Virus record (IMG/VR): IMGVR_UViG_3300035670_000079
Span: 1 to 64,000 of that record
Direction: 5' to 3' (one strand)
DNA length: 64,000 nucleotides
Origin: a virus
In this document: piece after piece, positions 127 through 57,840 of the stretch
Layout of the letters: every line of letters begins with the position of its first letter
Position numbering within the stretch: position 1 is the first letter of the stretch
Made by a program: the position numbers and the translations under genes
The notes under the pieces: model-generated
Databases searched by the model: none
The model's input: only the letters and a program-made list of their open reading frames with translations
Told to the model about the DNA's origin: nothing

Positions 127-1402
127 TGATGATTACAAGGAGGAGAAAGGCTCTAAGGGTAAATCTAAAAATTCCAGTAAATCAGAAAATGGCTCGGATT
201 CTAGCAATAACTCCAAGTCAGGGTCTGAGGACTCCGGTAAGCCTAAGGACTCCGGTAAGCCTGAGAAGGATTCTGGTGATACTGCTAACGGTAGTGAGGC
301 CGACAGTCCAAAGAAATCGCCTAAGAAAACGGCTTCGGCAACTGCTGGTAAGAAACCGCGTGATCCGGAGGTGCCTAAGAAACTGCTACAGGCACTAGAA
401 AAGATGTTACAGAATGGTGTAATACCGGATAGATCAAGATTAGACATAAATAGTACTCTAGGTAAGACTATGGTACAGGTTCTCACGGATTCCTATACGC
501 ACACCACTGAGGATGATGACGGCTTCCTGTCTAAGCCTACGGTTAATAACCTAGTATTTGGTTATACCAATAACGGTGATGTTGAGACGCCTCCTGTTAT
601 GGTTGTGCGTGAGCCTATTACCGGACACACGTCCAAGACTTATGCTGCTGCTAGTGCCGCTATGGCAAATAGTGTAGCCGCTTTGCGGAGTATCTTTTCG
701 ATACGTCGCAATAGTTTGAAAACTACTCAGCATAACCTTAAAACTGGTTTTATAGATAGACGGTCACTGCATAAGGCTCCGTTCGATCCACACATTTTTA
801 AGATGTCCTCTACTAAAATGGCTGAGGGTATTGATATTGCCTTACTTATTGATGAATCTGGTTCCACCTCCGGTAGTGTTAGCAGAACGCTTCGAGAGAT
901 TTGTGTACTGTTTGCAAATGCTCTTAGCGGTGTGCCTAAAGTGCGTCTGCGTGTTTATGGTCACTCAACATCGCTCAGCGGTAGAGAAGCTATGGCCATG
1001 TTTGAGTACTATGATTCTAAGAATCCTAAACTTCGTAATTTGACACGACTAGGCAATACTGGTAGTCGCGGTAGTAATTACGATGGCTTTGCTATCCAGT
1101 GGGTTGCTGATAAGTTTGCAGATAGCAATTACGAGTCAAAGTGGCTCTTAGTAATGTCTGACGGTGCTCCTAATGGTGGTCACGGCTATTATGATCTTAG
1201 TGCTATTCGTCACACATCTGGATCAGTGCAGTATGTAGAGAAGAAGGGCATAAATGTAGTGGGAATTGGTGTAGCGGCCAGAGTACCGCTGCACAAGCTG
1301 TATACGCACTACATTGATTACTCGGATAAGTTGTTGGATGATGTTAGAAAACTGATTATCAAGATCATAAAGGATTCTGAAAGTCGTCTTAGGGAACTGT
1401 GA
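2..1402 (+). CDS. vWA-domain protein (5' partial) with acidic Ser/Glu/Lys-rich N-terminal repeat region
   Basis: Frame 2 is open from the window edge and is the same frame as track ORF 371..1402. MIDAS-like DIALLIDESGSTSG and LLVMSDGAPNG motifs are present. Confidence 0.8.
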   Translation, partial: SESGESSESGESSESGESSESGESSESGESSESGESSESGESDDYKEEKGSKGKSKNSSKSENGSDSSNNSKSGSEDSGKPKDSGKPEKDSGDTANGSEADSPKKSPKKTASATAGKKPRDPEVPKKLLQALEKMLQNGVIPDRSRLDINSTLGKTMVQVLTDSYTHTTEDDDGFLSKPTVNNLVFGYTNNGDVETPPVMVVREPITGHTSKTYAAASAAMANSVAALRSIFSIRRNSLKTTQHNLKTGFIDRRSLHKAPFDPHIFKMSSTKMAEGIDIALLIDESGSTSGSVSRTLREICVLFANALSGVPKVRLRVYGHSTSLSGREAMAMFEYYDSKNPKLRNLTRLGNTGSRGSNYDGFAIQWVADKFADSNYESKWLLVMSDGAPNGGHGYYDLSAIRHTSGSVQYVEKKGINVVGIGVAARVPLHKLYTHYIDYSDKLLDDVRKLIIKIIKDSESRLREL

Positions 1403-1404
1403 GT

Positions 1405-1872
1405 ATGCCTAAGCGTAGCCGTAAGACTCGGAAACCGTTGCATACTGTGTGCTTCCCGGTTTCCGAGTCTGATTATTGGGTGTATCTAGCCTTAAAGCAG
1501 CGTCAATTGCAGCTAGAGGCTGTTACGGGTATACCTCTGCCTCTATCGGAATTGGTGTTAGCTCTGTTGAAGGATGTTCTTAAGGATAATTACAAGCCCG
1601 ATATTGCTGCCGATATAGCTAAAGTTGCAGAAAATTCCACTAGATACGCTGGTGCGTCTGGAGTAGTTCACGTTAAACTTAGCGGCGAGACGGCTTGGTT
1701 GAACGATTTAGTAGTTGCGGCGGCTAATTCGGCGTATGTTGCGGGTAGTTCTAATGTGACACCTTCGGATATGCTCAGGGCGTTAGCTATGGCGGCGGTA
1801 TTTCAGAATACCGGAATGGTTGACAGTATTCTCAGGTTAGCCAAACTAGGCGGCTACAAGGAGTCGAAGTAA
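1405..1872 (+). CDS. hypothetical protein
   Basis: Track ORF 1399..1872. ATG 1405 lies 8 nt after agggaa. The ORF abuts the upstream stop. Confidence 0.6.
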   Translation: MPKRSRKTRKPLHTVCFPVSESDYWVYLALKQRQLQLEAVTGIPLPLSELVLALLKDVLKDNYKPDIAADIAKVAENSTRYAGASGVVHVKLSGETAWLNDLVVAAANSAYVAGSSNVTPSDMLRALAMAAVFQNTGMVDSILRLAKLGGYKESK

Positions 1873-1875
1873 ATC

Positions 1876-2130
1876 ATGGTCATACCGCTAACAGCGCTCA
1901 ATGGGTTTAAAAATATTTTAAGTGAGTGTGGTATTGTGCAGTTGACATCGAATCTTAAGGCTAAGACTGGGCGATCTGCCTATATTGGTAAGTTCGGCGA
2001 TGAGTTGGTTATAGGTACTGTGGTGGATGATAAGATATCGTTCGTATTTCCGTCACAACGACTAGCTGAGGAGGTAGAGAGCCTCTGGCAGTTAGTACTA
2101 GAAAAGCTGGAGTCCGAAGGTGGCAATTGA
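1876..2130 (+). CDS. hypothetical protein
   Basis: Track ORF that tiles the + strand with no gap. Confidence 0.55.
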   Translation: MVIPLTALNGFKNILSECGIVQLTSNLKAKTGRSAYIGKFGDELVIGTVVDDKISFVFPSQRLAEEVESLWQLVLEKLESEGGN

Positions 2131-2605: not shown

Positions 2606-2912
2606 GCGACCACCGGACGAGTTACCTAAGACAGTACCTAAAGAGGCTCCGACCCTAAATAGGGTTACAGCCGAAATAATTCATAAGCGAATCTCTGAAG
2701 CACGTAGGGGTATAACCTTAAATCAACTCATTGCCAGCTTTCAGTGGGATGGTATGACTAGGCTGGAGAAGAAGGATTTGAGATATTCCATCATACGTGT
2801 TGTGCAAGAATTGCAACGATCTGGTAAGGTTGACTCTTGTCTAACAATATCTAGTGATTCTGTGGGTAATAGCTACAAGGTTTCCGGAGGTGCCAGTGGC
2901 AAAAGTACGTAA
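2586..2912 (+). CDS. hypothetical protein
   Basis: Track ORF with ATG 2586. It overlaps the upstream stop. Confidence 0.5.
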   Translation: MWLMSNRRPPDELPKTVPKEAPTLNRVTAEIIHKRISEARRGITLNQLIASFQWDGMTRLEKKDLRYSIIRVVQELQRSGKVDSCLTISSDSVGNSYKVSGGASGKST

Positions 2913-3489: not shown

Positions 3490-3823
3490 CGCCGTGACAA
3501 CATTTGAAATTCCGCAGACAAGCTACAACAATCTTATCAAAGCGGTTGAGCGAGTTCAAACCGCTCTTTCCGAGGTTAGTGGCGCCGGCCTGCCGTTTCA
3601 GCTTACTTCTGGTGTTATTATGGATCTGACTAATATTGCTGCGAGAGTACAGAGTCTCGTAAATATGTCTACACCTGTTAAATCGGGTCGTGGCCGTAAG
3701 GCTGAGGGTGTTGATTTTGCGGAAACTCCCGTAGGTGTGGATGATCCGCGTACTCCTGAGGAGAAAGCTGCGGATGCTGCGGCCGGAATTAATCCCCTGA
3801 CTACAGGGGCAGGATTGACATAA
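3482..3823 (+). CDS. hypothetical protein
   Basis: Internal ATG 3482 of track ORF 3401..3823. It overlaps the upstream stop. Confidence 0.55.
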   Translation: MTDAVTTFEIPQTSYNNLIKAVERVQTALSEVSGAGLPFQLTSGVIMDLTNIAARVQSLVNMSTPVKSGRGRKAEGVDFAETPVGVDDPRTPEEKAADAAAGINPLTTGAGLT

Positions 3824-4234: not shown

Positions 4235-5263
4235 ATGGATGCGCTGTTTGTGCCCTACTTTGCATTGACTGGAAATATCACTAGGTTTAAAGCCTTCATT
4301 TCCACATGCGAAGCTATAACTAAGGAGATTCCAAATACTCCGTTGTATACTTATACGCTGGGTTTACGTGAGCACGAAATTGCTGCTTTACGGTCCACAG
4401 GTGCCCATGTGCTGGGTAATATAGCGTTAGAGCCAACTTCAGCTAGGGTATGGTACAAAGAGGCTTTAACTAATGCTGCAATGTCAGCTTTGCTGCGTGA
4501 TAAGATTGTTAACTATGAGTCTATGGTAGCTGTCATTGACGCGGATGCTTATCCCGTCGCTGGTTGGGGTGCTACTATAGAGGCGTATGATAAGTTGATC
4601 TCATGTGGACTTACTGCGTTTCAGGGTTTTGGTACTTGCACATATAACGGCAATTCTAGGATGTCGGCAACATTGAAACTGTTTGATATGTTGGCGGAGA
4701 TGCCTTTAACTTTGCCTAAAGGTACAGTATTTCAAGTGGCATCTGAAAATCCTCCCGGAGGTGTTGTAGTAGGAAGACCCGGAAGAGAGCTACAACAATT
4801 TGAGTTATGTTTTAGCGGCGGCGGCGATTCTGCATGGTTTTACCCGATAAGTAACGGGTATTTCGGGTATTTTATCGAGTCCTACATGGGTATGAGTAAT
4901 ATTTATGCCTACGATAGTTGTAGCGTTACTCACGCTCATGATACAATTAGGAATCTGTATCGAAGTTACTATAAGGTAATGGCGGAGAAGTTCTACGAGG
5001 GCTTGGTAGGGCGGTCTGCGGTTACTTTGCAATCACTGAATACGGCTAGGGAAGTTCTGTCTAAGGTGCATTTCAACTTCGCATCTACGCGGGCCGTTAA
5101 CCCTAGATACGAGTCTAGGGCGAAATTGTTGGCAAATATTGACTTAAGGTGGTTTAATTTTACTGAGTTTGGTGGCGATCTTACGCCGACTATTTCAGTC
5201 AAGGATGAGCAAAAGTATAATCCACATTTACTGGAACTTAGAGCTTATCTGGAGAATGTATGA
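4235..5263 (+). CDS. hypothetical protein
   Basis: Track ORF 4223..5263. The first ATG is at 4235. Confidence 0.6.
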   Translation: MDALFVPYFALTGNITRFKAFISTCEAITKEIPNTPLYTYTLGLREHEIAALRSTGAHVLGNIALEPTSARVWYKEALTNAAMSALLRDKIVNYESMVAVIDADAYPVAGWGATIEAYDKLISCGLTAFQGFGTCTYNGNSRMSATLKLFDMLAEMPLTLPKGTVFQVASENPPGGVVVGRPGRELQQFELCFSGGGDSAWFYPISNGYFGYFIESYMGMSNIYAYDSCSVTHAHDTIRNLYRSYYKVMAEKFYEGLVGRSAVTLQSLNTAREVLSKVHFNFASTRAVNPRYESRAKLLANIDLRWFNFTEFGGDLTPTISVKDEQKYNPHLLELRAYLENV

Positions 5264-6192
5264 CTGACTTTACTGGCGGTGTGTCTGGCATTTATGCAGT
5301 TACCACTGCGGCTACATTCTCTGACTTATGGATATTTGGGGCTACTCCGGCTATATTTAGTATTCCGGAGGTGCTAGATCAATTTGTAGACGTAGTAAAC
5401 TTAGATCCCAGAGCTAGGGAGGGTGACGTAATTAGAAGTATAGTGGCCTACGATGTCGGGGGAGGTGCTCCTCTTAGTAGGGTATTTTCATTAAATTATC
5501 ACCAAGATTCTGGCAAAGATGCCCTTAAGGTAGGCTTATTACAAATCATCGGCAGTAAATTGCTTGTTAGTATGGGTAACCTTTTCAGTCAGCCACATTT
5601 ACGTTCAAATGCTCAGAAAGCTAATACAATACTGACTGAGGTTGTAAAAGACCTAACTAACTTGAGTAGCGGAACTCCGCCAAGCTTTGAGCAAGGTCGT
5701 TCGGTTATTTTAAATGCCGGGCGACGTTTATACGAATATTGGGAGGTGACCGCGGATAAAGCGGGTTACAGCAATACTTTGCGTTTATGGAACGATGCCA
5801 TGCTTAATTCGTATTACGCTGCATCGACCAATTGGATGTTTGTAACTCCGGCATCGGTTGCTTATACGTTTAAGTGCCTACATGGTATTACTTCCAAGGA
5901 ATTGCCGCCGTTTGTCTTCGTGCCGGCTATACGTGCTGACTATTGTGCTGACATGTACGGGGCTAAATATTGTCCTGACATGTACGTAGATGAGGTAAAT
6001 TCGCCTGATATGGTCCTTGAGACCGTGGTTAATGTTCCAGCCAGCTATACTGGTAGTAGTATGTTGTGGGTGAACTTAGGTAGGTTTTTACATGATGTTG
6101 TATTAGGTGATTCTGCCGGTGTAGTTATGCGGGAGAGTCCCGCAAGAAAGGGATATTGCTGGCAAATAAGTTACCCGGAGGGTGCGGAATAA
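5260..6192 (+). CDS. hypothetical protein
   Basis: Track ORF with an ATGA start/stop overlap with the upstream gene. Confidence 0.6.
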   Translation: MTDFTGGVSGIYAVTTAATFSDLWIFGATPAIFSIPEVLDQFVDVVNLDPRAREGDVIRSIVAYDVGGGAPLSRVFSLNYHQDSGKDALKVGLLQIIGSKLLVSMGNLFSQPHLRSNAQKANTILTEVVKDLTNLSSGTPPSFEQGRSVILNAGRRLYEYWEVTADKAGYSNTLRLWNDAMLNSYYAASTNWMFVTPASVAYTFKCLHGITSKELPPFVFVPAIRADYCADMYGAKYCPDMYVDEVNSPDMVLETVVNVPASYTGSSMLWVNLGRFLHDVVLGDSAGVVMRESPARKGYCWQISYPEGAE

Positions 6193-7520
6193 TGGTTATG
6201 ACTATACCTATAACGTCACAAGAAGATTTGATACTCAAGACACTGCTTAATCACCGGTCACCTAGGGTAGCACCCAATATTTGGATTAAGGTTACATTTT
6301 GGCAACTGTTTGGGCCTCCGATACCCCTTAGGCATGATAACGCTATTAGTCTTGAGGTTATGCAGACATTGCCTAAAATTACCTCAACTCTTATATCTGA
6401 GTGGAATTCGCACTCTAGGCCTAACATGCCTGCATGTAATTTGGTAGGGGATGCCAGCTTATATTCGATTAGGTTTGACTTCCAGTATTCGAGAAACTGG
6501 GATAATACCGATTGCATTGGGGCTGACTATGGTAAGTGTGGCTCGTATTTCGTTGCGTACCATACTCCTCTTGTGCGGCCGATTGTGTCGGAATTGCGAA
6601 AATCTCTTAAGGAAACCTATACAGATGCAATGCAATTTTGTGAGCGTAACAATCTTGGGGAGAAGTTTAGAAAGGTTATTCGTAATTTGCTTGTATGCCC
6701 TGTTAACCTAGTGCGCTCCGTGATGTTAGGCAGCGAGTATTTTTCGGGAACGCCGGTTAGACCTGCTGGCATGACAGTTAATGTAGATGTGATATTGGAT
6801 AGTCGTGGTAGCATTCTAATGCCATTTGATGGTTTTTGTGACTTAATTATATCTAAGTTTAGAGTACTTCTACGCTGTGTTTATAATACAGCAGTAGTTG
6901 GAAACTCCGATTCTAGTTGGGATCATGATGTACGTAAGGTAGCAGCTCGCGGTGGTGTTATAGGCTTAGGACAGGCCATGCTTCCGGATGGCCGAGATAA
7001 CTCTCCAGATGTGGCCGATTTAGTCAGACATCCTGAAGATGCTGTAGCTTTAATGTCGGCCTTAAATATAGGTGACGATCCTACATACGAGGCTATCATG
7101 GCGGAGTCACGTTTAGGGTTATTTCCTATTAATGTGCCGTTTGGATATGCTGACAAGGCCGTTGTGTTTAACGGTCTTCGCACGGCTAGTCCTGACATAT
7201 TTGAGGGTAGTTGCCGAAAATACGACGAGTGGATGTTACCCGCTGATATTTGTCATCTCGCGTTTAAGCTAGTGAAACCACACTATCGGAAGATATTGTC
7301 GTGCTATCCTGCGGACTTTGATAAGATTCTTGCGTCAAATTCTGTAGAGTTGCCTAGGCTAGACTTAGGTAGTACGCATGCTGAGATAATTCTTAATAGC
7401 AGTGGTGGAAATATTCCGGCTGACTTAGATAGTTCTCTTAGGGGTAAGCTAAGAGATGAAGGTCTTCAAGCTCGGTTACAATTCATTCTTTCCGGAGGTG
7501 GCAGTGATGAGGTTTTTTAG
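6192..7520 (+). CDS. hypothetical protein
   Basis: ATG 6192 overlaps the upstream TAA (TAATG). It is in frame with track ORF 6156..7520. Confidence 0.6.
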   Translation: MVMTIPITSQEDLILKTLLNHRSPRVAPNIWIKVTFWQLFGPPIPLRHDNAISLEVMQTLPKITSTLISEWNSHSRPNMPACNLVGDASLYSIRFDFQYSRNWDNTDCIGADYGKCGSYFVAYHTPLVRPIVSELRKSLKETYTDAMQFCERNNLGEKFRKVIRNLLVCPVNLVRSVMLGSEYFSGTPVRPAGMTVNVDVILDSRGSILMPFDGFCDLIISKFRVLLRCVYNTAVVGNSDSSWDHDVRKVAARGGVIGLGQAMLPDGRDNSPDVADLVRHPEDAVALMSALNIGDDPTYEAIMAESRLGLFPINVPFGYADKAVVFNGLRTASPDIFEGSCRKYDEWMLPADICHLAFKLVKPHYRKILSCYPADFDKILASNSVELPRLDLGSTHAEIILNSSGGNIPADLDSSLRGKLRDEGLQARLQFILSGGGSDEVF

Positions 7521-8283
7521 AGTTCTGGTGTGTATGCTGCTGTTAAGCTCATACGCCTATAGCGCTGATCCTATGGCTGTCATTAGTGGCGTTAATTCTG
7601 ACAAGCCGCCGGCTGCGGGTGTTACTGGCAGACTGCTCGTGTTTAGTTCTGAGGCGTCCAGTGCGGATACCCTTTTGTGGCAATTTGATGCCATTGAGCG
7701 GGTGGCTGAAATTTATGTTTGTAATAGCGGTACTACTGCTATTGTCAACTTCGTTACTCCCGGTGAGCACACTTTTAGCTTGTTGGCAATGTCAGTTAAC
7801 GAGACTCCCGGACCTAATAGGCCTAAGATACTCACGCATAGCGTGAAGCATACAGTAAAGGTAGTAGGAGATAACAAGAAAGATACACCGATTACACCTA
7901 AGCCGGATGATCCCGTAGTAGACGTTCCGAAGGTGCCGGAAGAGCAGGATAAGCCGGGACCATTTAATGATAAGTTTGGATTCTACTCACACATTACGGC
8001 AGTGGCTAAAACGGTGGAGTTGGATAAGAAACTGGCTAAAGCTATGGGCTTGAGCTACATTGCTAGATCGCTTCGTAAGTATGATGATATTCAAAAACTG
8101 GTACTGGATCAGAAGGCCGAAAATCAAACAATTGTGGGTACAGACGCGGCTGGCTTGCAAGTCTTGCAAGCTGTGACTGCCAAGCTGATAGAATCGGCTA
8201 AAGCTGGTAAGATTGCCACGTTAGCGGATCATGGTCAGGTGTGGTTGGAGATAGGGAGCGCACTCAATGACTATTCTAAGTAA
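7507..8283 (+). CDS. secreted protein with signal peptide and Pro-rich linker
   Basis: ATG 7507 lies 8 nt after GGAGG. The N-terminus MRFFRVLVCMLLLSSYAYSA looks like a signal peptide. Confidence 0.65.
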   Translation: MRFFRVLVCMLLLSSYAYSADPMAVISGVNSDKPPAAGVTGRLLVFSSEASSADTLLWQFDAIERVAEIYVCNSGTTAIVNFVTPGEHTFSLLAMSVNETPGPNRPKILTHSVKHTVKVVGDNKKDTPITPKPDDPVVDVPKVPEEQDKPGPFNDKFGFYSHITAVAKTVELDKKLAKAMGLSYIARSLRKYDDIQKLVLDQKAENQTIVGTDAAGLQVLQAVTAKLIESAKAGKIATLADHGQVWLEIGSALNDYSK

Positions 8284-9127
8284 TATCTCCGATTTAAGCG
8301 ATGCTGCAATAGCTAGATTGTACCATTTGGGGTATATCGACAACGGTATAGAGTTGCAGGAAGTCTTAGATATTAGGAGTCTCCCCGAACTTCAAGATGC
8401 GATAGCACACTTTCAACAGGCTAACAATATAGTTGAGACAGGTACTGTAGATAGTGAGACACTAACAGCGCTGACAATTGCGCGATGCATGACGCCAGAT
8501 AGGGCGGGGTCGGTCTGCGCGTGGCCGGCAAATATGCCCAAAACGCCAGAAGGCAACCTATTGATTAAGACTACTCATAGGATTGAGAATCTTAACCCGC
8601 TTGCGGCGGAACTTGAGCGGAAGGCTTGGTTGCAAGCTCTTGCAAACTGGTCGCAAGTTTGTGGGATTGAGTTAGTTCTGCACACGTCATTCGCAGATAG
8701 TAATATTCATGCCGAGGTCAGTGTCCTTGACGCGGGGACACTGGCTTATAGTTATTTGCCGTGCAATGCTAAGCCGACTACAAAGTTGGAGCAGCGTTAC
8801 AATAGAGCCGTTAACTGGAACTATAATCTGTTAGTGCAGGTCATTACGCATGAAATTGGTCATGCAATAGGGCTAGATCACGGTCCTCGCGGTGCTCTCA
8901 TGCAACCTACGGCTAATGGAGATATTCTTACGCCGCAGGCTTGGGATATTACAGAGGTAGTCAAGAGGTATGGTCCCCGTAAGGGTTCTGTACCTAAACC
9001 TAATCCAACACCTACTCCCGAAGGTGGGAAAGTAGTAGGAAAACTTGTATTGGATCAAACTCTTAACAAAGGTGAGTATGCCATCACACTTCGCGACGGT
9101 AAGCTGGAGATAGACTATGCGCAGTAG
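8267..9127 (+). CDS. matrixin (MMP/M10A)-like zinc metalloprotease zymogen with PG-binding-like prodomain
   Basis: Prodomain AIAHFQQANNIVETGTVDSETLTAL, cysteine-switch-like ARCMTPD, catalytic HEIGHAIGLDH (HExxHxxGxxH), and Met-turn GALMQP. Confidence 0.8.
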   Translation: MTILSNISDLSDAAIARLYHLGYIDNGIELQEVLDIRSLPELQDAIAHFQQANNIVETGTVDSETLTALTIARCMTPDRAGSVCAWPANMPKTPEGNLLIKTTHRIENLNPLAAELERKAWLQALANWSQVCGIELVLHTSFADSNIHAEVSVLDAGTLAYSYLPCNAKPTTKLEQRYNRAVNWNYNLLVQVITHEIGHAIGLDHGPRGALMQPTANGDILTPQAWDITEVVKRYGPRKGSVPKPNPTPTPEGGKVVGKLVLDQTLNKGEYAITLRDGKLEIDYAQ

Positions 9128-9685: not shown

Positions 9686-9957
9686 ATTTCGATGCCATCA
9701 AGGGTATTACTATTCTTGCCTGCGTTATAGGTATTATTGGCGGTCTTCTTGCAATGACGGCTGGAGTGATTGGTGAGTCTCCTGCAAGTCAGGTTCACCT
9801 AGAGAAGCTGTATCTATACTATTATATTAATCCGGAGGTGGTAAAACCTATAATAGATAAATACTCCAGTGATGGAGTTATAACTGAGAATGACTACTGC
9901 GACATTGTTAGGGAGATTCATTTTAAGTTTCACGATGACTTAGTGGGTAAGCCTTAA
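9682..9957 (+). CDS. small single-pass membrane protein (paralog 3 of 3)
   Basis: ATG 9682 overlaps the upstream TGA. TM segment ITILACVIGIIGGLLAMTAGVIG and motif DGVITENDYCDI. Confidence 0.55.
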   Translation: MNFDAIKGITILACVIGIIGGLLAMTAGVIGESPASQVHLEKLYLYYYINPEVVKPIIDKYSSDGVITENDYCDIVREIHFKFHDDLVGKP

Positions 9958-10041: not shown

Positions 10042-10602
10042 ATGCGACACTGGTTAATGGCAATGTTGTGCCTAGTTGATTACTCACAGATAGTGGATTA
10101 TTCACAAGTAGCTGAAGTTATTAGCTATAGTCAAGTTGATATTGTTGTAGAGACACCTACGGTAAAACCTGTAGAGGTGCCGAAACGTGTTTATGTTTAT
10201 ACTGCTGATTGGTGTGGGCCGTGTCTGGCATTCAAGGCGGAACCTAAACCAAGTGGTTATGAATTTATTTTCATAAATGAAGCTAATTGGCCGAGTTACG
10301 TTTACGGTAGGAAGCGGTTACCAGTGTTTCACTGGGAATATGCTGAAGATAGGTGGACATTTCAAGATGGTTATTTTGGAATGTCTCAACTTACGTCAGC
10401 TATTAGCAATAAGCCTATTGTTAGGGATGATTCTAGTCCGCTGTTCGGGGAGTGGACATTCCCCGGTAAAACTAGGGGTGACCTGATTAAGCATTTAGCC
10501 GGGCCACCGCATAACTATAGGTTAGGTTATCTGAAGGGTTTGTCTAACAGTCAATTACTGAACTTACACGACACTTGGCACAACAAGAACGGAGAAAATT
10601 GA
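10042..10602 (+). CDS. thioredoxin-fold protein (WCGPC) with N-terminal DYSQ(I/V) repeats
   Basis: Active-site-like YTADWCGPCLAFK. The N-terminus reads VDYSQIVDYSQV..ISYSQV. Confidence 0.7.
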   Translation: MRHWLMAMLCLVDYSQIVDYSQVAEVISYSQVDIVVETPTVKPVEVPKRVYVYTADWCGPCLAFKAEPKPSGYEFIFINEANWPSYVYGRKRLPVFHWEYAEDRWTFQDGYFGMSQLTSAISNKPIVRDDSSPLFGEWTFPGKTRGDLIKHLAGPPHNYRLGYLKGLSNSQLLNLHDTWHNKNGEN

Positions 10603-10605
10603 ATT

Positions 10606-10983
10606 ATGCCCGCAGCTAGAAACTCAGTTGAGTCGGCGGTAATTGCTTCTATCGGGGCCAGCAATAGGGTTATCCCTGAGGCATTGGTAGCTATGCTTAC
10701 CGATCTTATTTTCTCTGTTATCGGTAATTGCTTTAATCAGGGAGCGAGTCCGGCTAGCGTTAAAGCTAGCCTCTCTAAACCTTCCCCTTACCAGTTCGCG
10801 CAGTTTCGTTCTGCGGTGATTAAGAAAGCTTTTAAGGGTAGTTATTTCAAGTATATTAAAGAGGGCGGAGATGAGATGCTCCGCAATCTTATGGCACAGG
10901 CCGCTGCTGCGCCCGAAGGTGACTACGAAAAACTTAGTGACGACATTAAGAAAGACATTGCGATAGACTACTCTCAGATATAG
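10606..10983 (+). CDS. hypothetical protein ending in DYSQI
   Basis: Track ORF. The C-terminal sequence is IAIDYSQI. Confidence 0.55.
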   Translation: MPAARNSVESAVIASIGASNRVIPEALVAMLTDLIFSVIGNCFNQGASPASVKASLSKPSPYQFAQFRSAVIKKAFKGSYFKYIKEGGDEMLRNLMAQAAAAPEGDYEKLSDDIKKDIAIDYSQI

Positions 10984-38872: not shown

Positions 38873-38952
38873 ACGTGGTCGGTGTTCGTTTTCCGGAGGT
38901 GCCATGACGGCGACTTTTATGGCGGTAGTTGGCAGCTTAGTGGAGCTTAGCA

Positions 38953-46976: not shown

Positions 46977-48689
46977 ATGCCGTCCGCCGTAGATACACTT
47001 GAGTTTACCGAAGACTCCGATGAAGTCGTTGAGATTACTGAAGCCTTCATCGTTGGGGACGGTGATGCTGAGACCATTACAACTGATCCCTTAACGTCCT
47101 TTATAGCAAGTCTTCAAAAGTCTGCAAAATCTACATCGCCTGAGGGTACGTTTGACGTACTTAAAAGCGTCGTAGGTAGTCAGCAGATATTGGAATTGCC
47201 GGCAGGTATCACGGAGAAAGTGGTACCTCCGCCATATAATCCGGCTATACCTTTGTTTTTTCTGCAAATGGACGAAGTAGTTCATAGAGCCGTAATGGCA
47301 AAGGCCTACGATTCCGTAGGTGTTAAATTTAACCTAGTGCATAGGAAAGCACCCGATGGTCAACCTACAAAGAATGAACGTAAGGTTAAAGCTGAGTTAG
47401 AGGAAATACGGACCTTTATAGAGAATTGCAACGAAGCGTTTGGCTTTACCGGCGTACTCACCAAAACCTGTATGGACATGGAAGCTGTAGGTTGGGGTGC
47501 CATTGAAGTTATCCGTGGCGCGGATATGAAGATAAAGAAAATTGATCACGTACCGGCTCAGCGTATACAGGTAGCTCGTGGTTGGGAGTATTTTGTAGAA
47601 TCATTTGCCGGAGAGGTTCGATACTATCAACCGTTCGGTAGGAAAGTTGTAAGTAAGACTAGACGCCAACTTGATGGCAAGCCCGCAAGCTTTGATCCAC
47701 GATTAGACGGCGGACCTCCTACTGCTGTAAATGCGCAGTTTAACCTTATTGACGCAACTACCGGTCAAGGCACTGAAAACTTCTTAAAATCCGCTAATGA
47801 AATTTTATGGTTTACTAAGCATCACCCTGCCACCGTGTACTACGGAGTTTCCGATAGCGTACCGGCCAGATCGCAGATACTCGGCAACATTCATATTAGA
47901 GAGTATCTATTGCAGTTCTTTGAGCACAATACTGTACCTCGTTACGCTATTATCGTTAAAGGTGCCAATCTGTCTCCGGAGGTTAGAGACGCTATCTTAA
48001 GCTACTTCCAAACTAATATCAAAGGTAGAGCACATAAGACATTGTTTATACCTATTCCTAGTGTTAGGGGCAATATTGAAGTTAAGTTTGAAAAACTGGA
48101 TATGGGTACTGAGAATAGTTTCTTCAAAGATATCTCCTTGGAACTTGCCCATTCTATCGGACGCGCTCACGGTGTACCCTCGGCTATTTTAGGTTTTAGT
48201 GAAGCGGCTTCGCTTGGTTCTGGTAAAGGCACTGCTCAGAACCAGATGTACAAAGATAGGGTCATTACACCACTTCAGGAGAAATTCAGTACAGCTATTA
48301 ATGCCATGTTTTCTAAGGGTTTAGGTGTATCCAATGTAGATATTATATTTAATCCCCTCGATATTCGTGATAGGGAAGCTGAGGCTCGGCTGTACGGACA
48401 ATTATTTGATAGGGGTAGTGTGACTATTAATCAAGTTATTGAAGCTTTTCAACTGGGTAAGCCTATTGAAGGTGGTGACAGGGCATTCATTAAGTTTGGC
48501 AATAAGATTGTATTTATTGATGAGTTGCCCGGTATGGAGTCCGGAGATATCGGAGAAGATGAACCTCCGGCAGGTGATAATGGTGCTCCCGGAGTGCCTA
48601 AGACGCCTGATGGTAATAGTAAGACTAAGAAAGGTCCGGAGAATACTCCAGATAATATGATAGAGTCTCAATTATCTGGAAAAAACTAA
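46977..48689 (+). CDS. portal protein
   Basis: A ~570-aa ORF directly after TerL and before the protease/scaffold and capsid genes. The acidic/Pro-rich C-terminus is typical of portals. The call is positional. Confidence 0.7.
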   Translation: MPSAVDTLEFTEDSDEVVEITEAFIVGDGDAETITTDPLTSFIASLQKSAKSTSPEGTFDVLKSVVGSQQILELPAGITEKVVPPPYNPAIPLFFLQMDEVVHRAVMAKAYDSVGVKFNLVHRKAPDGQPTKNERKVKAELEEIRTFIENCNEAFGFTGVLTKTCMDMEAVGWGAIEVIRGADMKIKKIDHVPAQRIQVARGWEYFVESFAGEVRYYQPFGRKVVSKTRRQLDGKPASFDPRLDGGPPTAVNAQFNLIDATTGQGTENFLKSANEILWFTKHHPATVYYGVSDSVPARSQILGNIHIREYLLQFFEHNTVPRYAIIVKGANLSPEVRDAILSYFQTNIKGRAHKTLFIPIPSVRGNIEVKFEKLDMGTENSFFKDISLELAHSIGRAHGVPSAILGFSEAASLGSGKGTAQNQMYKDRVITPLQEKFSTAINAMFSKGLGVSNVDIIFNPLDIRDREAEARLYGQLFDRGSVTINQVIEAFQLGKPIEGGDRAFIKFGNKIVFIDELPGMESGDIGEDEPPAGDNGAPGVPKTPDGNSKTKKGPENTPDNMIESQLSGKN

Positions 48690-48766: not shown

Positions 48767-50176
48767 ATGCCCGACGTTGTAGTTGCAGTTAGCCCTGGAA
48801 ATTCTGTCATTTATGACAATACGGCAGATCGTATTGTCATAGAAGGCACTCCGGATATGACCTCAACCCTCAATATTAAGGGTTTTGTGTCGGTAGATAT
48901 TGTAGACCGTCAGGGTGAGAAAGTAGACCCCTCTGCATTCGACATTGATGGGTTTATGAGGGCTGGCTCTGTTCTGGTCAATCATCACCTCTGGTTTGAT
49001 GATAGGGGTTGTCCAGGTTCCGTAGGTACCGTAACTTCTCTTCATGAAGTAGAGTTACGGGAACTTGATGCAGAAAACTGGGAAGTCTACGACGTGCGTA
49101 AGAATGTGCGTGTAGATACTTATCCCAAATCTCGCAATGGTAACTTCTATAAAGGCTTAAAGGGTCTTTATACATTTATACGTCTTTCTAATCCTGATGT
49201 TATAAGTATGGTTAATAAGGGAGAGTTGAAGTCATTCTCATGGCGCGGCGATTCGATACGTGACTACAGATATGACCGCGCTACAAACTCTACATACCCC
49301 AGTTACTCTAAAATAGGTATTTGGGAAATATCCTTAGTATCGGTACCGGTGCAACCAGACTCCGGTTTCGTGGTTTCAAAGGATATGTTCCACTCAATGT
49401 GGTTAGATAAGAGTCGGTATAACTTGAATCAGGCAAGAGCACTGGCAGATAAATTTAGACTGCCTTGTGATAAAATATACGAAACTGATGACGGTATCTG
49501 CATTTATTCAGGTAATGCTACATTGGCTACCAAGTCGCTATCTACGTTCGAGGCGTTTTCAGGAGCCTGTATAGTAACTGCAAGTACTTGCAACTTGGCG
49601 ACTACCTCGCAGGCTAAGTTCGATATTTCAAAAGATGCCCTAACTCGATTTCATTCCAGTTTGATGAGGACGACTCAAATGAGTGAACAGGCTCCTGCTA
49701 CGGGTAATGCTACTCCGGTGGCGCCGGTTGCAAAGTTTACCCCCGAAGAACTCTCTGTTGTGACTAAGGGTGTCGTGGATGCGCTCATCCCGGCATTCTC
49801 TGAAACCATCACAAAGTTGACTGACAGCCTTACCAGTACGCTCACCACTGGTATGACCGGTCTGACTGAGGTGGTTAAGGGTATGCAACCCAAGACGCCC
49901 GAACCTGCGGCTAAGGCACCTGAAGTTGCTGCCGAAGGTGCTCAGAAGCTTGTGGATAGCGTTAAGAGTCTTATTGAAGAGCATCAGAGGGCTGTTGATG
50001 CTAAGTTGGCTGATATTCAAAAGTCCTTTACTACGATTATTCCGCAGAGTAAGCCGCGTGGTGACTCTACGGAACCGGGGAAGACGCCCGCTGACGGCAA
50101 TACCGGCAATAATGGAGGTACTCCGGATAAGAACTCCGTGTTTAATTCTATTTTCTTGCAGATGGCTCGGCGCTAA
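48767..50176 (+). CDS. prohead protease/scaffold-like protein
   Basis: It lies between the portal and capsid genes. The C-terminal third is Ala/Glu/Lys-rich and helical, as in scaffolds. I recognised no catalytic motif. Confidence 0.45.
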   Translation: MPDVVVAVSPGNSVIYDNTADRIVIEGTPDMTSTLNIKGFVSVDIVDRQGEKVDPSAFDIDGFMRAGSVLVNHHLWFDDRGCPGSVGTVTSLHEVELRELDAENWEVYDVRKNVRVDTYPKSRNGNFYKGLKGLYTFIRLSNPDVISMVNKGELKSFSWRGDSIRDYRYDRATNSTYPSYSKIGIWEISLVSVPVQPDSGFVVSKDMFHSMWLDKSRYNLNQARALADKFRLPCDKIYETDDGICIYSGNATLATKSLSTFEAFSGACIVTASTCNLATTSQAKFDISKDALTRFHSSLMRTTQMSEQAPATGNATPVAPVAKFTPEELSVVTKGVVDALIPAFSETITKLTDSLTSTLTTGMTGLTEVVKGMQPKTPEPAAKAPEVAAEGAQKLVDSVKSLIEEHQRAVDAKLADIQKSFTTIIPQSKPRGDSTEPGKTPADGNTGNNGGTPDKNSVFNSIFLQMARR

Positions 50177-52416: not shown

Positions 52417-52961
52417 TGGCATTGCCAGATTATTTCAAAGTGGCCCAAGGTACTGCCGTTATTTGGGGAGAGTCTGGCGCTACCGGCGGTTTAGGTGCTG
52501 TCACTAAGACACTGAGCTTAAATGCACTAGCATCCGGGTCAGGTAGAATGGGCGCATCTGCTGACTTAGGCGCCACTTGGGATATGGAGCATATCCTTAT
52601 AGGTGCGATAGAGTCTGGTACAGCCCCTACAGCCGGTTTAAGTATTGACATTTATTTGGCGTGGAGTCATGATAACACTAACTGGCCCGCAGGTGTAACT
52701 GGTAGTGACGGTGCATGGCCCGCTGACGGCAATGAGGATGAGTGGGCGCTGCAATTGACACCAATAGCCTTATCAGTAATCTCCACTAATGATGGTAATG
52801 TGGTTCAAATGCAGAATCCTCGCATAATTATACCTAAAGCGCGGTACGTGGCCCCTGTGGTAGATAATAACTGGAATCAGGCTATCAGGAATCAGGGTAC
52901 GGCCAGCAATAATTTGTCTAGAATACTGCTTGTACCATTAATATCCTCTGTTGAGGACTAA
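52416..52961 (+). CDS. hypothetical protein (head module)
   Basis: Track ORF with a TAATG overlap with the upstream gene. Confidence 0.55.
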   Translation: MALPDYFKVAQGTAVIWGESGATGGLGAVTKTLSLNALASGSGRMGASADLGATWDMEHILIGAIESGTAPTAGLSIDIYLAWSHDNTNWPAGVTGSDGAWPADGNEDEWALQLTPIALSVISTNDGNVVQMQNPRIIIPKARYVAPVVDNNWNQAIRNQGTASNNLSRILLVPLISSVED

Positions 52962-53733: not shown

Positions 53734-56147
53734 TGCGCAAAAACGTGGCTGGGCAGATCATCGGCATACAAATGCTGGCCACTGATGGCAGTAACTTCAC
53801 TGGCACAGTGACCGTGTATATCACTGGTGATAACGGTACGCAAGCAATTGGTACCGTTGGTTCAGGTGTGTGTACGCATAAAGGTAAAGGTTTTCACACT
53901 TACGCACCGTCGCAAGCAGAGACTAACTATGATCATATTGCTTTCACTTTTGAGGGGACCGGGGCAATAACTGCGACTCTGCAAGTCTACACTCGTGTAG
54001 ATGTCAATATTACGCATTGGTTAGCTACGGCAGTTACCGGAGACGGGGATTGGGCTGAGTTGCAAGGTGATATTGACGATATTTTAGTCGATACTGGCAC
54101 CTCCGGAGTTATTGTTGCCACCAATAATGACAAGACCGGGTATAGCCTTACTCAAGCATTTCCAACCAACTTTGCAAGTCTTGCAATTACGGTCGGTGGC
54201 GCCGTTACTGTGGGTACTAATAGCGATAAGACGGGGTATAGTGTTTCCGGCACAATTACTACGTTGGACGCACTTGATACTGCGCTCGATGCTGCTCATG
54301 GTGGTGGAAGCTGGGCAACTGCTACGGGTTTCTCCACATTTGACCATACTACAGATCAAGTTACAGTTGCTGTTAATAACGATAAGACTGGTTACAGTCT
54401 TACTCAGGCATTTCCTAGCAACTTTGCAAGTCTCGCAATTACTGTGGGAGGTGCTGTTACTGTTGGCACCAATAGTGATAAAACTGGATACAGTATTTCC
54501 GGCACAATTACTACGTTGGACGCACTTGATACTGCGCTCGATGCTGCTCATGGTGGTGGAAGCTGGGCAACTGCTACCGGATTTTCCACGTTTGATCACA
54601 CAACAGATCAAGTTACGGTTGCTACCAATAACGATAAAACGGGGTATAGCTTAACACAAGCATTCCCAAGTAACTTTGCAAGTCTTGCAATTACCGTAGG
54701 TGGTGCTGTGACAGTTGGAACTAATAACGATAAGTCTGGATATAGTATTTCCGGAACAATTACCACTCTCGATGCTCTGGATACCGCCCTTGATTCGGCG
54801 CATGGTGGTGGTAGCTGGGAAGCTCCAAGTGCGGCTACGGTTGCTGATGCAGTGTGGGACGAACTGCTTAGTGGGCATGTCATTGCAGGTAGCGCTGGGG
54901 CGGCTTTGTCCGCAGCAAGTAGTGCAGGAGATCCGTGGGCTACGGCTCTCCCCGGAGCATACTCAGCAGGTACGGCGGGGCATATTATTGGCAATCTCAA
55001 TGATTTGTCTATGGCGGATATCCGCACTGCTGTAGGGTTAGCGTCGGCTAATCTAGATACGCAGTTGTCCGGATTAAGTACTTTCGATCACACTTCAGAC
55101 CAAGTTACGGTGGCCACTAATAACGACAAGACCGGTTACAGTCTCACTCAGGCATTTCCTAGCAACTTTGCAAGTCTTGCAATTACGGGAGGTGGTGCTG
55201 TCACGGTTGGTACCAATAACGACAAAACTGGGTATAGTATCTCCGGTACGTTGACTACGTTGGATGCGCTTGATACTGCCCTTGATTCTGCTCACGGCGG
55301 TGGAAACTGGGAAGCTCCCTCGGCTGCTACGATAGCAGATGCTGTTTGGGATGAGTTATTAAGTGGTCATGTTATAGCAGGTAGTGCTGGTGCCGCACTG
55401 GCCGCTGCTGGTAGTGCAGGTGATCCGTGGTCAACTCTACTTCCGGGAGCGTATTCTGCGGGAACTGCCGGGCACATTATCGGTAATCTCAACGATCTTT
55501 CGGCAGCGGAGATTCGTACAGCGGTCGGGTTAGCTGCGGCTAATTTGGATACGCAGCTTGCAGCTATGGATACTATACTTGATAGATTTAATACCATGAT
55601 TGAACTTGACGGTTCCGTGTATCGGTATACTACGAATGCACTGGAATTAGCTCCGGCGGGGTCCGGAGGTGGCAGTACTGCCGCACAAATATGGTCGTAT
55701 GCTAGTAGAACACTTACTATGACGGCTCAACAGATACAGGATGTAGTAGAGTCAAATCTAATTACAATACATCGCGGAGACACGATCAGCATATCTTTGA
55801 CAGGTCTTGGTGACTTGTCTGACGCTTATGATATAATATTCACTATTAAGCGATCCTCTGGTGATCCGGAAGATTCAGCCTCAATGCTGCAAGTGCGTAT
55901 GGAAGGTGGCTTAATTTACTTAAACGGTGAAGTTGCCGCTGATTCCGCGCTGGGTGATATTCTTGTAGTGGATGAGGCCGAAGGTGATATTGAGATTAGT
56001 GTAGAGGCTGAGGCAAGTGCTGAGCTTGTACCCAGTGAATGCTACGTCTGCGATGTGCAAGTCTTGCGATATCCGACAGGCACCGTAAATACCGTGCATA
56101 ACAGCGCATGTCATGTGATTGAAGACGTTACACGAGGAATCGTCTAA
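53733..56147 (+). CDS. repeat-rich fibre protein (head or tail fibre)
   Basis: 804 aa. It has about 4 NNDKTGYSLTQAFP.NFASLAIT.GGAVTVGTN.DKTGYS.SGT.TTLDALDTALD.AHGGG.W modules and two AVWDELLSGHVIAGSAG...ANLDTQL modules. Confidence 0.7.
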   Translation: MRKNVAGQIIGIQMLATDGSNFTGTVTVYITGDNGTQAIGTVGSGVCTHKGKGFHTYAPSQAETNYDHIAFTFEGTGAITATLQVYTRVDVNITHWLATAVTGDGDWAELQGDIDDILVDTGTSGVIVATNNDKTGYSLTQAFPTNFASLAITVGGAVTVGTNSDKTGYSVSGTITTLDALDTALDAAHGGGSWATATGFSTFDHTTDQVTVAVNNDKTGYSLTQAFPSNFASLAITVGGAVTVGTNSDKTGYSISGTITTLDALDTALDAAHGGGSWATATGFSTFDHTTDQVTVATNNDKTGYSLTQAFPSNFASLAITVGGAVTVGTNNDKSGYSISGTITTLDALDTALDSAHGGGSWEAPSAATVADAVWDELLSGHVIAGSAGAALSAASSAGDPWATALPGAYSAGTAGHIIGNLNDLSMADIRTAVGLASANLDTQLSGLSTFDHTSDQVTVATNNDKTGYSLTQAFPSNFASLAITGGGAVTVGTNNDKTGYSISGTLTTLDALDTALDSAHGGGNWEAPSAATIADAVWDELLSGHVIAGSAGAALAAAGSAGDPWSTLLPGAYSAGTAGHIIGNLNDLSAAEIRTAVGLAAANLDTQLAAMDTILDRFNTMIELDGSVYRYTTNALELAPAGSGGGSTAAQIWSYASRTLTMTAQQIQDVVESNLITIHRGDTISISLTGLGDLSDAYDIIFTIKRSSGDPEDSASMLQVRMEGGLIYLNGEVAADSALGDILVVDEAEGDIEISVEAEASAELVPSECYVCDVQVLRYPTGTVNTVHNSACHVIEDVTRGIV
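54110..55570 (+). repeat. intragenic 252-bp (84-aa) repeats and a higher-order ~480-bp duplication
   Basis: The stretch tttccggcacaattactacgttggacgcacttgatactgcgctcgatgctgctcatggtggtggaagctgggcaactgcta recurs at 54244 and 54496. Confidence 0.85.
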
Positions 56148-56851
56148 TGCCGAACTATGCAACGGTGTCTCAGGTGATGGAGCACAAAATTGCAGGTGAG
56201 ATACCTCGCAAGATTAAAAATTATTCTCCGGAGGAGATAGCGGAGCATATCGAGGTAGCGGAAGCTATAATTGAGAATCATACTAATACAATTTTCTACA
56301 GCAAAACAGAGACCGTGTACCTTAATGGTACGGGTAATTTATCATTGTTTTTCTACCATGTTGTCAACTACCCTATTATATCTGCGACCTCTGTTAAAGA
56401 GGTAGACCCTGATGGCACTGTTAAATATACTTACTTGGCTACTGATTACGTAGTACAGCCTTGGTATATCTCAGTTGCGTATAACGAGCAGCTAGGTGCC
56501 AGAGAGTTTACTGTGCGACAGGCGCGTTGGCCGAAAGGCCTGCGTAATATTCAGATAGTGGGTACTTGGGGTAGGTCAGCAGTACCGTCGGTTGTAAAGA
56601 CAGCCACCATATTGCTGACTTTGGAATCTCTGATACCCGGATGTACTGGGCTGGTGTCTAATAATATTGTTGAGCGTGAGTGGGAGGATTTACGCTTGAA
56701 ATATCGTGGAACTAGTTCCGAAAGTATTCCTCCTCAGGCATCCGTAGGTTATGACTACATTGACCGGCTGTTAGCTAAGTACGTACTGTCACCGGCTATT
56801 TTTATAACGCCTGATACCCATATCCCTCATCCATTGAGCGATTATGTTTGA
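56147..56851 (+). CDS. head-tail connector/neck module protein (positional)
   Basis: Track ORF with a TAATG overlap. It is the first of four neck-sized ORFs before the tail tube. Confidence 0.5.
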   Translation: MPNYATVSQVMEHKIAGEIPRKIKNYSPEEIAEHIEVAEAIIENHTNTIFYSKTETVYLNGTGNLSLFFYHVVNYPIISATSVKEVDPDGTVKYTYLATDYVVQPWYISVAYNEQLGAREFTVRQARWPKGLRNIQIVGTWGRSAVPSVVKTATILLTLESLIPGCTGLVSNNIVEREWEDLRLKYRGTSSESIPPQASVGYDYIDRLLAKYVLSPAIFITPDTHIPHPLSDYV

Positions 56852-57236
56852 TAGTTACGGCTGCTATGAGAGTTTCGATATCTTCAGATATACGGTTGAG
56901 GATGATGGTATAGGTGGAATAATCCAAAGCGGTAAGACATTCTTGTACCGCAAATTAGTAGGTCGCTCAACGGTAATGAGTGCTAAAAAGCAATTAGACT
57001 TGCTGGGATTTGCCGGAGGTGTTAAGTGGTCGGTGTATATGGAAGCTGTACCATTAGTACCTCTGAATGGTGAGGGTATTTTCTTACGGCTGTCTCCCGG
57101 CAGTCCTGAAATAAATTTGAAGTTAAATACAATCTACAAAATAGTACATTGCAGGAATCAGCAAGACGAGTCAGGGCAGTTAGATCATGGGACTGTTGTA
57201 GTGGAGTTGGACGACGCTCGAACTGCTCAGGAGTAA
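56844..57236 (+). CDS. neck module protein (positional)
   Basis: Track ORF. Confidence 0.5.
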   Translation: MFDSYGCYESFDIFRYTVEDDGIGGIIQSGKTFLYRKLVGRSTVMSAKKQLDLLGFAGGVKWSVYMEAVPLVPLNGEGIFLRLSPGSPEINLKLNTIYKIVHCRNQQDESGQLDHGTVVVELDDARTAQE

Positions 57237-57240
57237 TCAA

Positions 57241-57840
57241 ATGCAAATCCGGATGAAGCCTAGAGAATTGCCGCTCTCTAGTGATAATCCGGATGCAGTC
57301 ATGTTCCGAAGATTTCTTATAGAGGCCTTCTACAAGAGAGTAGCCGGCAGGCCTCGGCAAGGGTTTGAAAAGCGCATATTGCAAACTATTCGTGAAAAAA
57401 TTATAGGTTATATGAGTGAGCATCTTATAGCTCATTATAGAGAGTACATGGACGGTCCTAACGGTGCCTACGGTAAGCCGATTAGCTTTACCGGTACGGC
57501 TGCTGATAGTTTTCAAGTAGTTGAATCCGGCGATAAGTCAATAACAGTGGCAGCAATTGATTATCTCTACCTTCAGGAAACTGATAGTCCGCCGCGAGAA
57601 GTTCCAGCAGATGAGTTTGAACGATTGATAGACTGGGTACTGGCTAGAGGTAGAGCTAAGCATTCCGATTCAGCAATTATCGCCGCAGACCGTATTATGG
57701 AAAAAATCGAGAATGAGGGTTCAGCATTACGGCCATTCATACGAGAGCAGTTTGAAGTATTCATGCAGGAGCATGAGGATAAGCTTGAGCAAATAGTTTT
57801 AGATATCTCTAAGTCCTCCCGAAGGTGGCGAAAGAAATGA
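57241..57840 (+). CDS. neck/tail-completion module protein (positional)
   Basis: Track ORF. Confidence 0.5.
   Translation: MQIRMKPRELPLSSDNPDAVMFRRFLIEAFYKRVAGRPRQGFEKRILQTIREKIIGYMSEHLIAHYREYMDGPNGAYGKPISFTGTAADSFQVVESGDKSITVAAIDYLYLQETDSPPREVPADEFERLIDWVLARGRAKHSDSAIIAADRIMEKIENEGSALRPFIREQFEVFMQEHEDKLEQIVLDISKSSRRWRKK

Follow-up and report, generated by a model that had tools for sequence, protein, structure and literature searches.

We analyzed a 64,000-nt stretch of viral DNA (positions 1 to 64,000 of the IMG/VR record IMGVR_UViG_3300035670_000079, hereafter the window) and found that the nine-base word CCGDAGGTG is written into it far more often than coding allows. The word sits at synonymous sites, occurs on both strands and also in non-coding DNA, is specific to this phage lineage, and quantitatively resembles Chi in Chi-rich phages. 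Very probably, it acts as a recognition word at the level of DNA and has built up through strong selection or drive, its strand bias being largely a by-product of the coding of nearly all genes on one strand. As to what reads it, our leading but tentative candidate, by analogy with the Chi-rich phages, is a host helicase–nuclease of the RecBCD/AddAB class, for which the word would be a Chi-type sequence.

The window comes from the genome of a tailed phage and carries, all on the + strand, genes for the small and large terminase subunits, portal, protease, major capsid and tape-measure proteins. Nearly all open reading frames (ORFs) lie on that strand, the GC content is about 45% and the GC skew is positive throughout. 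A protein identical (100%) to its large terminase subunit (TerL) is encoded on a 101,068-bp JGI contig, and the same phage, at 98–100% identity, is found in at least four public assemblies. The next-nearest TerL proteins are only about 50% identical, many of them on contigs of about 100 kb.

The earlier note on this DNA had described the word as CCGRAGGTG. In that form it occurs 30 times on the + strand and 6 times on the − strand, against an expectation of 0.55 and a maximum of 3 in dinucleotide-preserving shuffles; the enrichment was real and stronger than that note had stated, but the nearly free position 4 had been overlooked. With T at this position (CCGTAGGTG) there are 11 further + and 3 further − copies, and with C (CCGCAGGTG) 2 and 0, so that CCGNAGGTG totals 43 + and 9 − copies, or 52 in the window. 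The remaining single-base variants of the 9-mer have 0–2 copies apiece. On the + strand, position 4 is G in 20 copies, T in 11, A in 10 and C in 2. Since C is poorly used even where the proteins permit it (2 of 21 opportunities on the + strand, 0 of 11 on the − strand), we write the word as CCGDAGGTG. Avoidance of a restriction site was considered as the cause of the scarce C and rejected, GCAGGT/ACCTGC not being depleted.

The word is tightly bounded. CC precedes 43 of the 59 occurrences of GNAGGTG, TG follows 43 of the 55 CCGNAGG, and GGAGGTG lacks the CC prefix in only 6 of 26 cases. Eight positions are therefore fixed and one is free, and the flanks beyond ±2 are unconserved. Closer in, T or C is favored at −1 and a pyrimidine at the second base 3′ of the word. 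These preferences appear in both frames and also in the − copies and give the extended form YCCGDAGGTGNY. CCGDAGGTG is the commonest gapped 9-mer in the window, at about 1 per 1.2 kb when both strands are counted. Its spacing is not clearly regular (with a coefficient of variation of 0.8, the gaps between + copies are hard to tell from random ones). A literature search for the 9-mer matched primers only, and a search with the sample accessions led to no publication.

Coding does not explain these numbers. In a synonymous shuffle, in which codons were exchanged among all + genes while every protein and the codon usage were kept, the coding DNA was expected to hold 2.14 copies on the + strand (maximum 7) and 0.48 on the − strand (maximum 3); it holds 37 and 9 (Poisson P ≈ 1e-32 and 2e-9, respectively). 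The gene models used here were our own ORF tiling, partly checked against the called genes of two other loci, L082 and L085. We also counted opportunities, that is, every place at which synonymous codons would permit the word: 35 of 64 carry it on the + strand (55%) and 9 of 29 on the − strand (31%), where codon usage expects 1.8 and 0.34. On both strands the enrichment is about 17- to 26-fold, and it acts at synonymous sites. For instance, 10 of the 13 P-E-V tripeptides are spelt CCG-GAG-GTG, against a codon-usage prediction of about 5%, and the codons that the word employs (TCC, GGA, GTG) are the non-preferred ones. Within genes, the copies fall in two frames (CCG-NAG-GTG and xCC-GNA-GGT-G); the earlier note had counted all three, but the third occurs only at gene 3′ ends. 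Five or six of the 52 copies are non-coding, including three + copies in an untranslated, repeat-rich stretch at 28.0–28.6 kb.

The sense-strand bias reported earlier (43:9 in raw counts) is real but mostly a by-product of coding, given 64 opportunities on the + strand and only 29 on the − strand. The observed ratio of 4.8:1 is close to what coding constraints predict (2.14:0.48 in the shuffle, 64:29 in opportunities), and the leftover orientation preference, 55% versus 31%, is modest (Fisher P = 0.044). One could ask whether codon usage, repeated peptides, ribosome-binding site (RBS) positions or chance might account for everything, with no signal at all. In favor of this, besides the strand ratio, the copies at 19867 and 21103 belong to homologous stretches of paralogous genes and one further copy lies in an internal protein repeat. 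Nonetheless the shuffle and the opportunity counts refute it: codon usage and RBS positions, which the earlier note had named as a possible full explanation, deal with most of the strand ratio but not with the copy number (37 and 9 versus 2.14 and 0.48). The flanks, moreover, are unconserved, and the copies are spread over two reading frames plus non-coding DNA. We regard this explanation as having practically no chance of being right.

A held-out check gave the same picture. Locus L082 is identical to window positions 55148–64000 and extends 5.9 kb further; this extra DNA holds 6 additional + copies and 1 additional − copy, using 5 of 5 and 1 of 2 opportunities. Saturation varies along the genome, being 22/32 (+) and 8/17 (−) in the left arm (0–25.7 kb), 13/32 (+) and 1/12 (−) between 28.7 and 64 kb (P = 0.007), and complete again in the tail genes past the window end. 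Of the nine − copies in the window, all but one are located in the left arm.

The word is also specific to this lineage. We collected 45 loci of 12–22 kb around TerL homologues (25–53% identity) from IMG/VR and other assemblies, in which it occurs 0–3 times per roughly 20 kb; such near-absence would be anticipated for a word that tracks the host and not the phage family. Nor did the 45 loci reveal a comparable word inside genes at a like density. There were no relatives between 53% and 98% TerL identity, and the near-identical strains differ too little for an analysis of site conservation.

Most copies lie deep within ORFs, as the earlier note had observed. Some are read in frame as P-E-V or P-K-V. 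P-E-V copies, all CCGGAGGTG, are at 365..373 (ORF 2–1402), 5365..5373 (ORF 5260–6192), 9832..9840 (ORF 9667–9957), 19867..19875 and 21103..21111 (in the genes 19345–19992 and 20272–21231, both encoding proteins with multiple helix-turn-helix (HTH) domains), 25020..25028 (AAA ATPase gene 24420–25661), 41087..41095 (ORF 40787–41383) and 44247..44255 (nuclease gene 44025–44480). The P-K-V copies, CCGAAGGTG, are at 7927..7935 (ORF 7507–8283) and 46110..46118 (midway along the large terminase gene). In the two multi-HTH genes the word falls in homologous ‘...GLPTMNP...PEVV...’ segments.

Further + copies of CCGGAGGTG within ORFs occur at 4755..4763 (ORF 4223–5263), 16631..16639 (16483–16686), 21654..21662 (21272–21796), 55663..55671 (a gene for an 804-aa protein, 53733–56147) and 57013..57021 (56844–57236). 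Those of CCGAAGGTG are at 2114..2122 (the 3′ end of ORF 1876–2130, read as S-E-G-G), 9018..9026 (peptidase gene 8267–9127), 10913..10921 (ORF 10606–10983), 21474..21482 (21272–21796), 39524..39532 (39337–39840), 49932..49940 (48713–50176) and 55978..55986 (the 804-aa gene). CCGTAGGTG is found at 3729..3737 (ORF 3401–3823, read as P-V-G-V), 12334..12342 (12081–12998), 16477..16485 (16215–16544), 22584..22592 (22493–22729), 35345..35353 (35242–36036), 36189..36197 (RNase H gene 36005–36613), 47314..47322 (portal gene) and 54694..54702 (the 804-aa gene), and the rare C variant CCGCAGGTG at 41434..41442 (ORF 41304–41876) and 52687..52695 (52416–52961).

Outside this set, CCGGAGGTG at 28080..28088 and CCGTAGGTG at 28233..28241 and 28539..28547 are in the non-coding repeat region. 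CCGGAGGTG at 29249..29257 spans the end of ORF 28800–29258 and intergenic DNA, in a high-GC module, and CCGGAGGTG at 38893..38901 is intergenic (38818 to 38953).

On the − strand, copies lie within + ORFs at 865..873 (CCGGAGGTG, ORF 2–1402), 1760..1768 (CCGAAGGTG, ORF 1399–1872), 10154..10162 (CCGTAGGTG, ORF 10042–10602) and 24310..24318 (CCGTAGGTG, ORF 23784–24365), in the AAA ATPase gene at 25522..25530 (CCGTAGGTG) and in the 804-aa gene at 54098..54106 (CCGGAGGTG). The other three, all CCGGAGGTG, sit within 30 nt of a + copy and form inverted pairs with it: 16601..16609 with 16631 (21-nt spacer), 21455..21463 with 21474 (10-nt spacer), and 19862..19870, which overlaps 19867 to give the palindrome CACCTCCGGAGGTG. 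An RNA or single-stranded DNA hairpin as the functional unit was considered and rejected: within 80 nt, a near-perfect inverted partner exists for only 3 + copies, and the rest behave like random 9-mers. All 20 + coordinates that the earlier note gave for CCGGAGGTG were correct, as were its nine for CCGAAGGTG, a list that lacked 55978; its four − coordinates were right too, but two further − copies, 865 (CCGGAGGTG) and 1760 (CCGAAGGTG), were passed over.

That note had defined the word by its complementarity to the anti-Shine–Dalgarno (anti-SD) sequence of 16S rRNA, and internal SD-like sequences on phage mRNAs might in principle pause ribosomes or capture 30S subunits. The resemblance is genuine, since the word holds (G)GAGGTG, complementary to the 3′ end of 16S rRNA: all variants share AGGTG (5 complementary nt), and the G variant has 7. 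It is also true that 6–8 + copies lie 3–10 nt upstream of credible starts and double as RBSs, a location that recalls the start-associated sequences of mycobacteriophages. These are CCGGAGGTG at 2884..2892 (for GTG 2896), 7492..7500 (ATG 7507), 17161..17169 (ATG 17172) and 30053..30061 (ATG 30068, in the high-GC module), all recognized before, together with two that were not, CCGTAGGTG at 23769..23777 (ATG 23784) and CCGAAGGTG at 57819..57827 (ATG 57837). The starts at 21488 and 38904 may perhaps be added; the latter had been listed as well, but it opens only a very short ORF.

However, a location about 4–12 nt upstream of a start applies to just these 6–8 of the 43 + copies, about 80% of copies being far from any start, and the usual RBSs of the phage are GGAG, AGGAG or AAGGAG rather than the word, so that an explanation by RBSs only was rejected. 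Nor does conservation coincide with pairing to 16S rRNA: CCG never varies and yet lacks complementarity to the 16S 3′ tail, the free position falls inside the GGAGG core, and GGAGGTG is rare when CC is missing. In addition, the reverse complement (CACCUHCGG in the mRNA) is enriched about 20-fold (9 versus 0.34–0.48 expected), and copies are present in untranslated DNA (25.7–28.6 kb). A translational role is accordingly very improbable, and we are confident that the SD resemblance is incidental to the main role of the word. While the headline of the earlier note did not survive, its fallback proposals, a Chi-like host signal or a recognition site for some other factor, have become the best readings.

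Comparison with known systems places the word among selected DNA words of phages. Host Chi sites are numerous in lambdoid phages that lack a recombination module (PMC12315714). In the same source, the Escherichia coli phage LLS has 23 Chi sites (1 per 1.86 kb, 20:3 by strand), the Pseudomonas phage MD8 has a strand ratio of 32:0, and P1 has 50 sites per 94.8 kb (PMC12315714). When we applied the opportunity test to Chi in LLS, 15 of 32 opportunities (47%) were used in the active orientation and 1 of 21 (5%) in the inactive one. In the first 50 kb of P1 there are 15 Chi sites on the top strand and 12 on the bottom strand, all of the latter within 1–21.5 kb. The Haemophilus phage HP1 carries 17 uptake signal sequences (USS) in 32 kb, which use 11 of 13 sense (85%) and 4 of 9 antisense (44%) opportunities. 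Given the comparable saturation in LLS and HP1, the 55% and 31% of the window represent a level reached by real selected DNA words in phages. The orientation pattern lies between the polarity of LLS and the symmetry of HP1, and resembles that of P1.

The likeness to the Chi-rich phages LLS, MD8 and P1 extends to several features. Here as there, a short, asymmetric, G-rich word is the top-ranked oligomer of the genome, recurs about once per 1.5–1.9 kb and predominates on one strand. The general profile of Chi in such phages, a top oligomer at about 1 per 2 kb occupying synonymous sites, agrees with the 43 + copies in 64 kb, and the description of Chi as short (5–8 nt), asymmetric and strictly specified agrees with eight fixed positions plus one free. 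LLS uses about half of its permissive synonymous sites (15/32), as does the window (35/64). P1 has both orientations, with the minority one confined to a single region of about 20 kb; here, 8 of the 9 − copies lie within 0–25.7 kb. On the other hand, the word bears no relation to GCTGGTGG or GCTGGCGC and, unlike them, consists of eight specified bases plus a free one, and its minority orientation is 31% saturated versus 5% in LLS.

RecBCD/AddAB-type enzymes are nearly universal, while Chi words vary between taxa and are mostly not yet known. For these reasons, and because phages are documented to accumulate Chi at a like density and saturation and no recombinase or RecBCD inhibitor was detected in the window, we rank a Chi-type signal first. 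No recombinase or anti-RecBCD family was detected among the window proteins by Pfam or PHROGs. Under such a scheme, selection would have written CCGDAGGTG into the phage genome wherever the proteins tolerate it. A host RecBCD/AddAB-class enzyme entering the phage DNA at an end or a break would meet the word, cease degradation and switch to a recombination-promoting activity. The phage DNA would thereby be protected and recombination-dependent growth would be fed, as in Chi-rich phages devoid of recombination and anti-RecBCD genes of their own.

Several points weigh against this assignment. The − saturation of 31% is far above that of the inactive orientation in LLS (P(≥9 of 29) ≈ 8e-6 at 5%), which means that a strict LLS-type polarity does not hold, and numerically the orientation pattern is nearest to that of the HP1 uptake sequences (85%, 44%). 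No known Chi has this sequence, and the three tight inverted pairs are not something that a Chi model would predict. What defines Chi is the response of the host enzyme, along with an excess in the host genome that is skewed with replication; scans of viral and genome collections with the inverted pairs, intended to find the host, gave chance-like matches, with no motif-dense locus among the matches listed. Finally, a recombination module or a RecBCD inhibitor could hide in the unannotated ORFs, which are the majority, or in the roughly 31 kb of the ~101-kb genome that lie outside our view. As for words already described, neither known Chi sequences nor KOPS (FtsK-orienting polar sequences) or SRS (SpoIIIE recognition sequences) are enriched in the window.

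KOPS (GGGNAGGG) and SRS (GAGAAGGG), the signals of FtsK and SpoIIIE, do share with our word an asymmetric 8- or 9-mer format, a free fourth position, a GNAGG core and a predominance on one strand. Their reverse orientation, though, is counter-selected, whereas that of CCGDAGGTG is about 20-fold enriched (9 versus 0.34–0.48), and no FtsK-like translocase gene was found in the window.

The strong enrichment of both orientations (55% and 31% of opportunities) would also suit a duplex site read in either direction by a phage-encoded protein, a tag of self. Candidate readers are the products of three consecutive genes at 19345–21231, each with several HTH domains (HTH_7, HTH_23, HTH_28, Sigma70_r4, Mor-like), and a ParB-like protein (42929–43612). 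Possible uses include genome organization, transcription control, packaging choice and the discrimination of phage from host DNA. The word is asymmetric and looks bipartite (CCG-N-AGGTG), as expected for a tandem-HTH monomer. It is lineage-specific, densest in the early arm, and accompanied by multi-HTH, ParB-like and HNH genes. A palindrome, TGCAAG-N1-2-CTTGCA, shows that this phage family writes protein- or structure-recognized words into its genes. Yet no protein has been linked to the word, the candidates offered no usable homologous loci for a comparison of co-occurrence, and we know of no precedent for a phage factor that needs some 50 dispersed sites saturating synonymous positions. Overall, we consider a self tag of this kind rather unlikely.

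The word could also mirror the uptake sequence of a naturally competent host, such as USS in Pasteurellaceae or the DNA uptake sequence (DUS) in Neisseriaceae. Uptake sequences are 9–12 bp long, occur about once per kb in both orientations, and lie inside and outside genes; the 52 copies in 64 kb are in line with this in length (9–12 informative positions), density, preferred in-gene frames and orientation. The 9-mer core of the HP1 USS, AAGTGCGGT, occurs about once per 1.9 kb in that phage, in both orientations, within genes and at very high saturation, with a sense:antisense ratio of about 1.9, compared with about 1.8 here. Inverted pairs, of which the window has three, are a known habit of USS and DUS. 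Against this, the pairs of the window are inside ORFs and not at terminators, and their scan revealed no motif-dense genome among the matches listed. The word is not known to resemble any USS or DUS in sequence, CCGDAGGTG/CACCTHCGG differing from AAGTGCGGT, ACAAGCGGT and the GCCGTCTGAA dialects. The USS drive acts on chromosomes and prophages; HP1 is temperate and lives in a chromosome under this drive, whereas the 70 kb available here showed neither an integrase nor a lysogeny module. Only two bacterial families are known to take up DNA in a sequence-specific manner, which keeps the prior low; we judge this origin improbable. Taken together, a tag autonomous to the phage and read as duplex in either orientation by one of its proteins (e.g., a multi-HTH protein), which would identify the phage DNA as self during packaging, protection or the organization of the genome, or else the first sequence of the uptake type beyond the Pasteurellaceae and Neisseriaceae, is a possibility that we hold doubtful but worth retaining.

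Sites of a phage nicking endonuclease, as in the T5- or phiKMV-type interruptions, would likewise favor one strand, and 83% of the copies are indeed on one strand. The window has two HNH endonuclease genes, 2896–3489 and 17668–18126, the second with a C-terminal zinc-ribbon-like CxxC...CxxxC tail, and either product might be the nickase. Zinc-ribbon phage HNH enzymes, reportedly described by Xu and Gupta in 2013, are said to be site- and strand-specific nickases with short specificities. But ten copies are on the other strand (9 in the window and 1 beyond it), an enrichment of about 20-fold, and a one-strand rule fails. The saturation of synonymous opportunities would also be left without a reason, and known nicked phages have far fewer sites. 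This makes nicking sites more improbable still than an uptake origin.

Some other features of the window deserve mention. The palindrome or hairpin TGCAAG-N1-2-CTTGCA has 31 copies, 17 of them within ORFs (e.g., at 2496, 8156, 13968, 26513–26732, 31712, 46954, 54173 and 61715), and it is a family-wide feature with co-varying versions in relatives, namely GTGCAAGCACTTGCAC in L002 and TGCAAACGTTTGCA in L113, L119 and L120. L002, whose TerL is 51% identical, also has a preQ0 (7-deazaguanine) cluster just upstream of its terminase genes (6923–9361), with QueC, PTPS/QueD, radical SAM/QueE and GTP cyclohydrolase I; the window has no such cluster. This suggests that DNA modification occurs in part of the phage family.

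The region at 25700–28600 is large, non-coding and repeat-rich, with a 73-bp repeat (×3, 26511–26751), a 14-bp repeat (×6.4, 27962–28050) and a 15-bp repeat (×3, 28488–28535). It also holds four ‘box + polypurine’ units with CGAGGTGACA at 25949, 26117, 26982 and 27194; at 26982 and 27194 the box reads CCGAGGTG, that is, the motif minus its free base. The adjoining module (28600–30300) has about 60% GC, against 45% for the genome. It contains two copies of a promoter-like element, AAGCAAGTTTGACTCT..TCCGCGTTTGTTT, one ahead of each of the motif copies at 29249 and 30053, and no homologue was detected for the 226-aa protein of the module. At 30426–30591, just upstream of an unannotated 750-aa ORF (30909–33161), lie about eight copies of an AT-rich iteron (GCGTATTTTTT) within a 73-bp duplication, a candidate replication origin.

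The window begins inside a perfect 18-bp tandem repeat (×7.1, 1–127) that encodes NPASLV repeats at the N-terminus of a VWA-domain protein, and the independent assembly L085 breaks at this repeat as well. A CxxCxxCC zinc/iron-chelating domain (PF03692, 16483–16890) is divided between ORFs 16483–16686 and 16708–16890, which could reflect a frameshift, readthrough or a pseudogene; the first part contains the inverted motif pair 16601/16631. Rfam and tRNA scans of the window found nothing but one tRNA-Ile (anticodon TAT; 16074–16164), whose 91 nt make it unusually long. The 804-aa structural protein contains an in-frame 252-bp repeat (×2.8, 54107–54819), each unit of which has a TGCAAGTCTTGCA palindrome followed by a motif-like word, the exact motif being present only in the 54694 unit.

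Irrespective of the actual reader, the synonymous-opportunity saturation test, calibrated on LLS, P1 and HP1, separates DNA-level words from artefacts of codon usage or strand. Should its reader be a phage protein or an uptake machine, the word would be a new kind of genome tag, and saturating, gene-embedded DNA words would have gained a new use in a virus. Should it be the Chi of the host, an uncultured phage genome alone would have revealed the recognition sequence of a host helicase–nuclease; to our knowledge, Chi is experimentally known for only a handful of bacteria. Counting the word in metagenome bins could then locate the host. Furthermore, the strategy of having no recombination genes but many Chi sites would extend from the lambdoid phages to a large (~101 kb), unrelated family.

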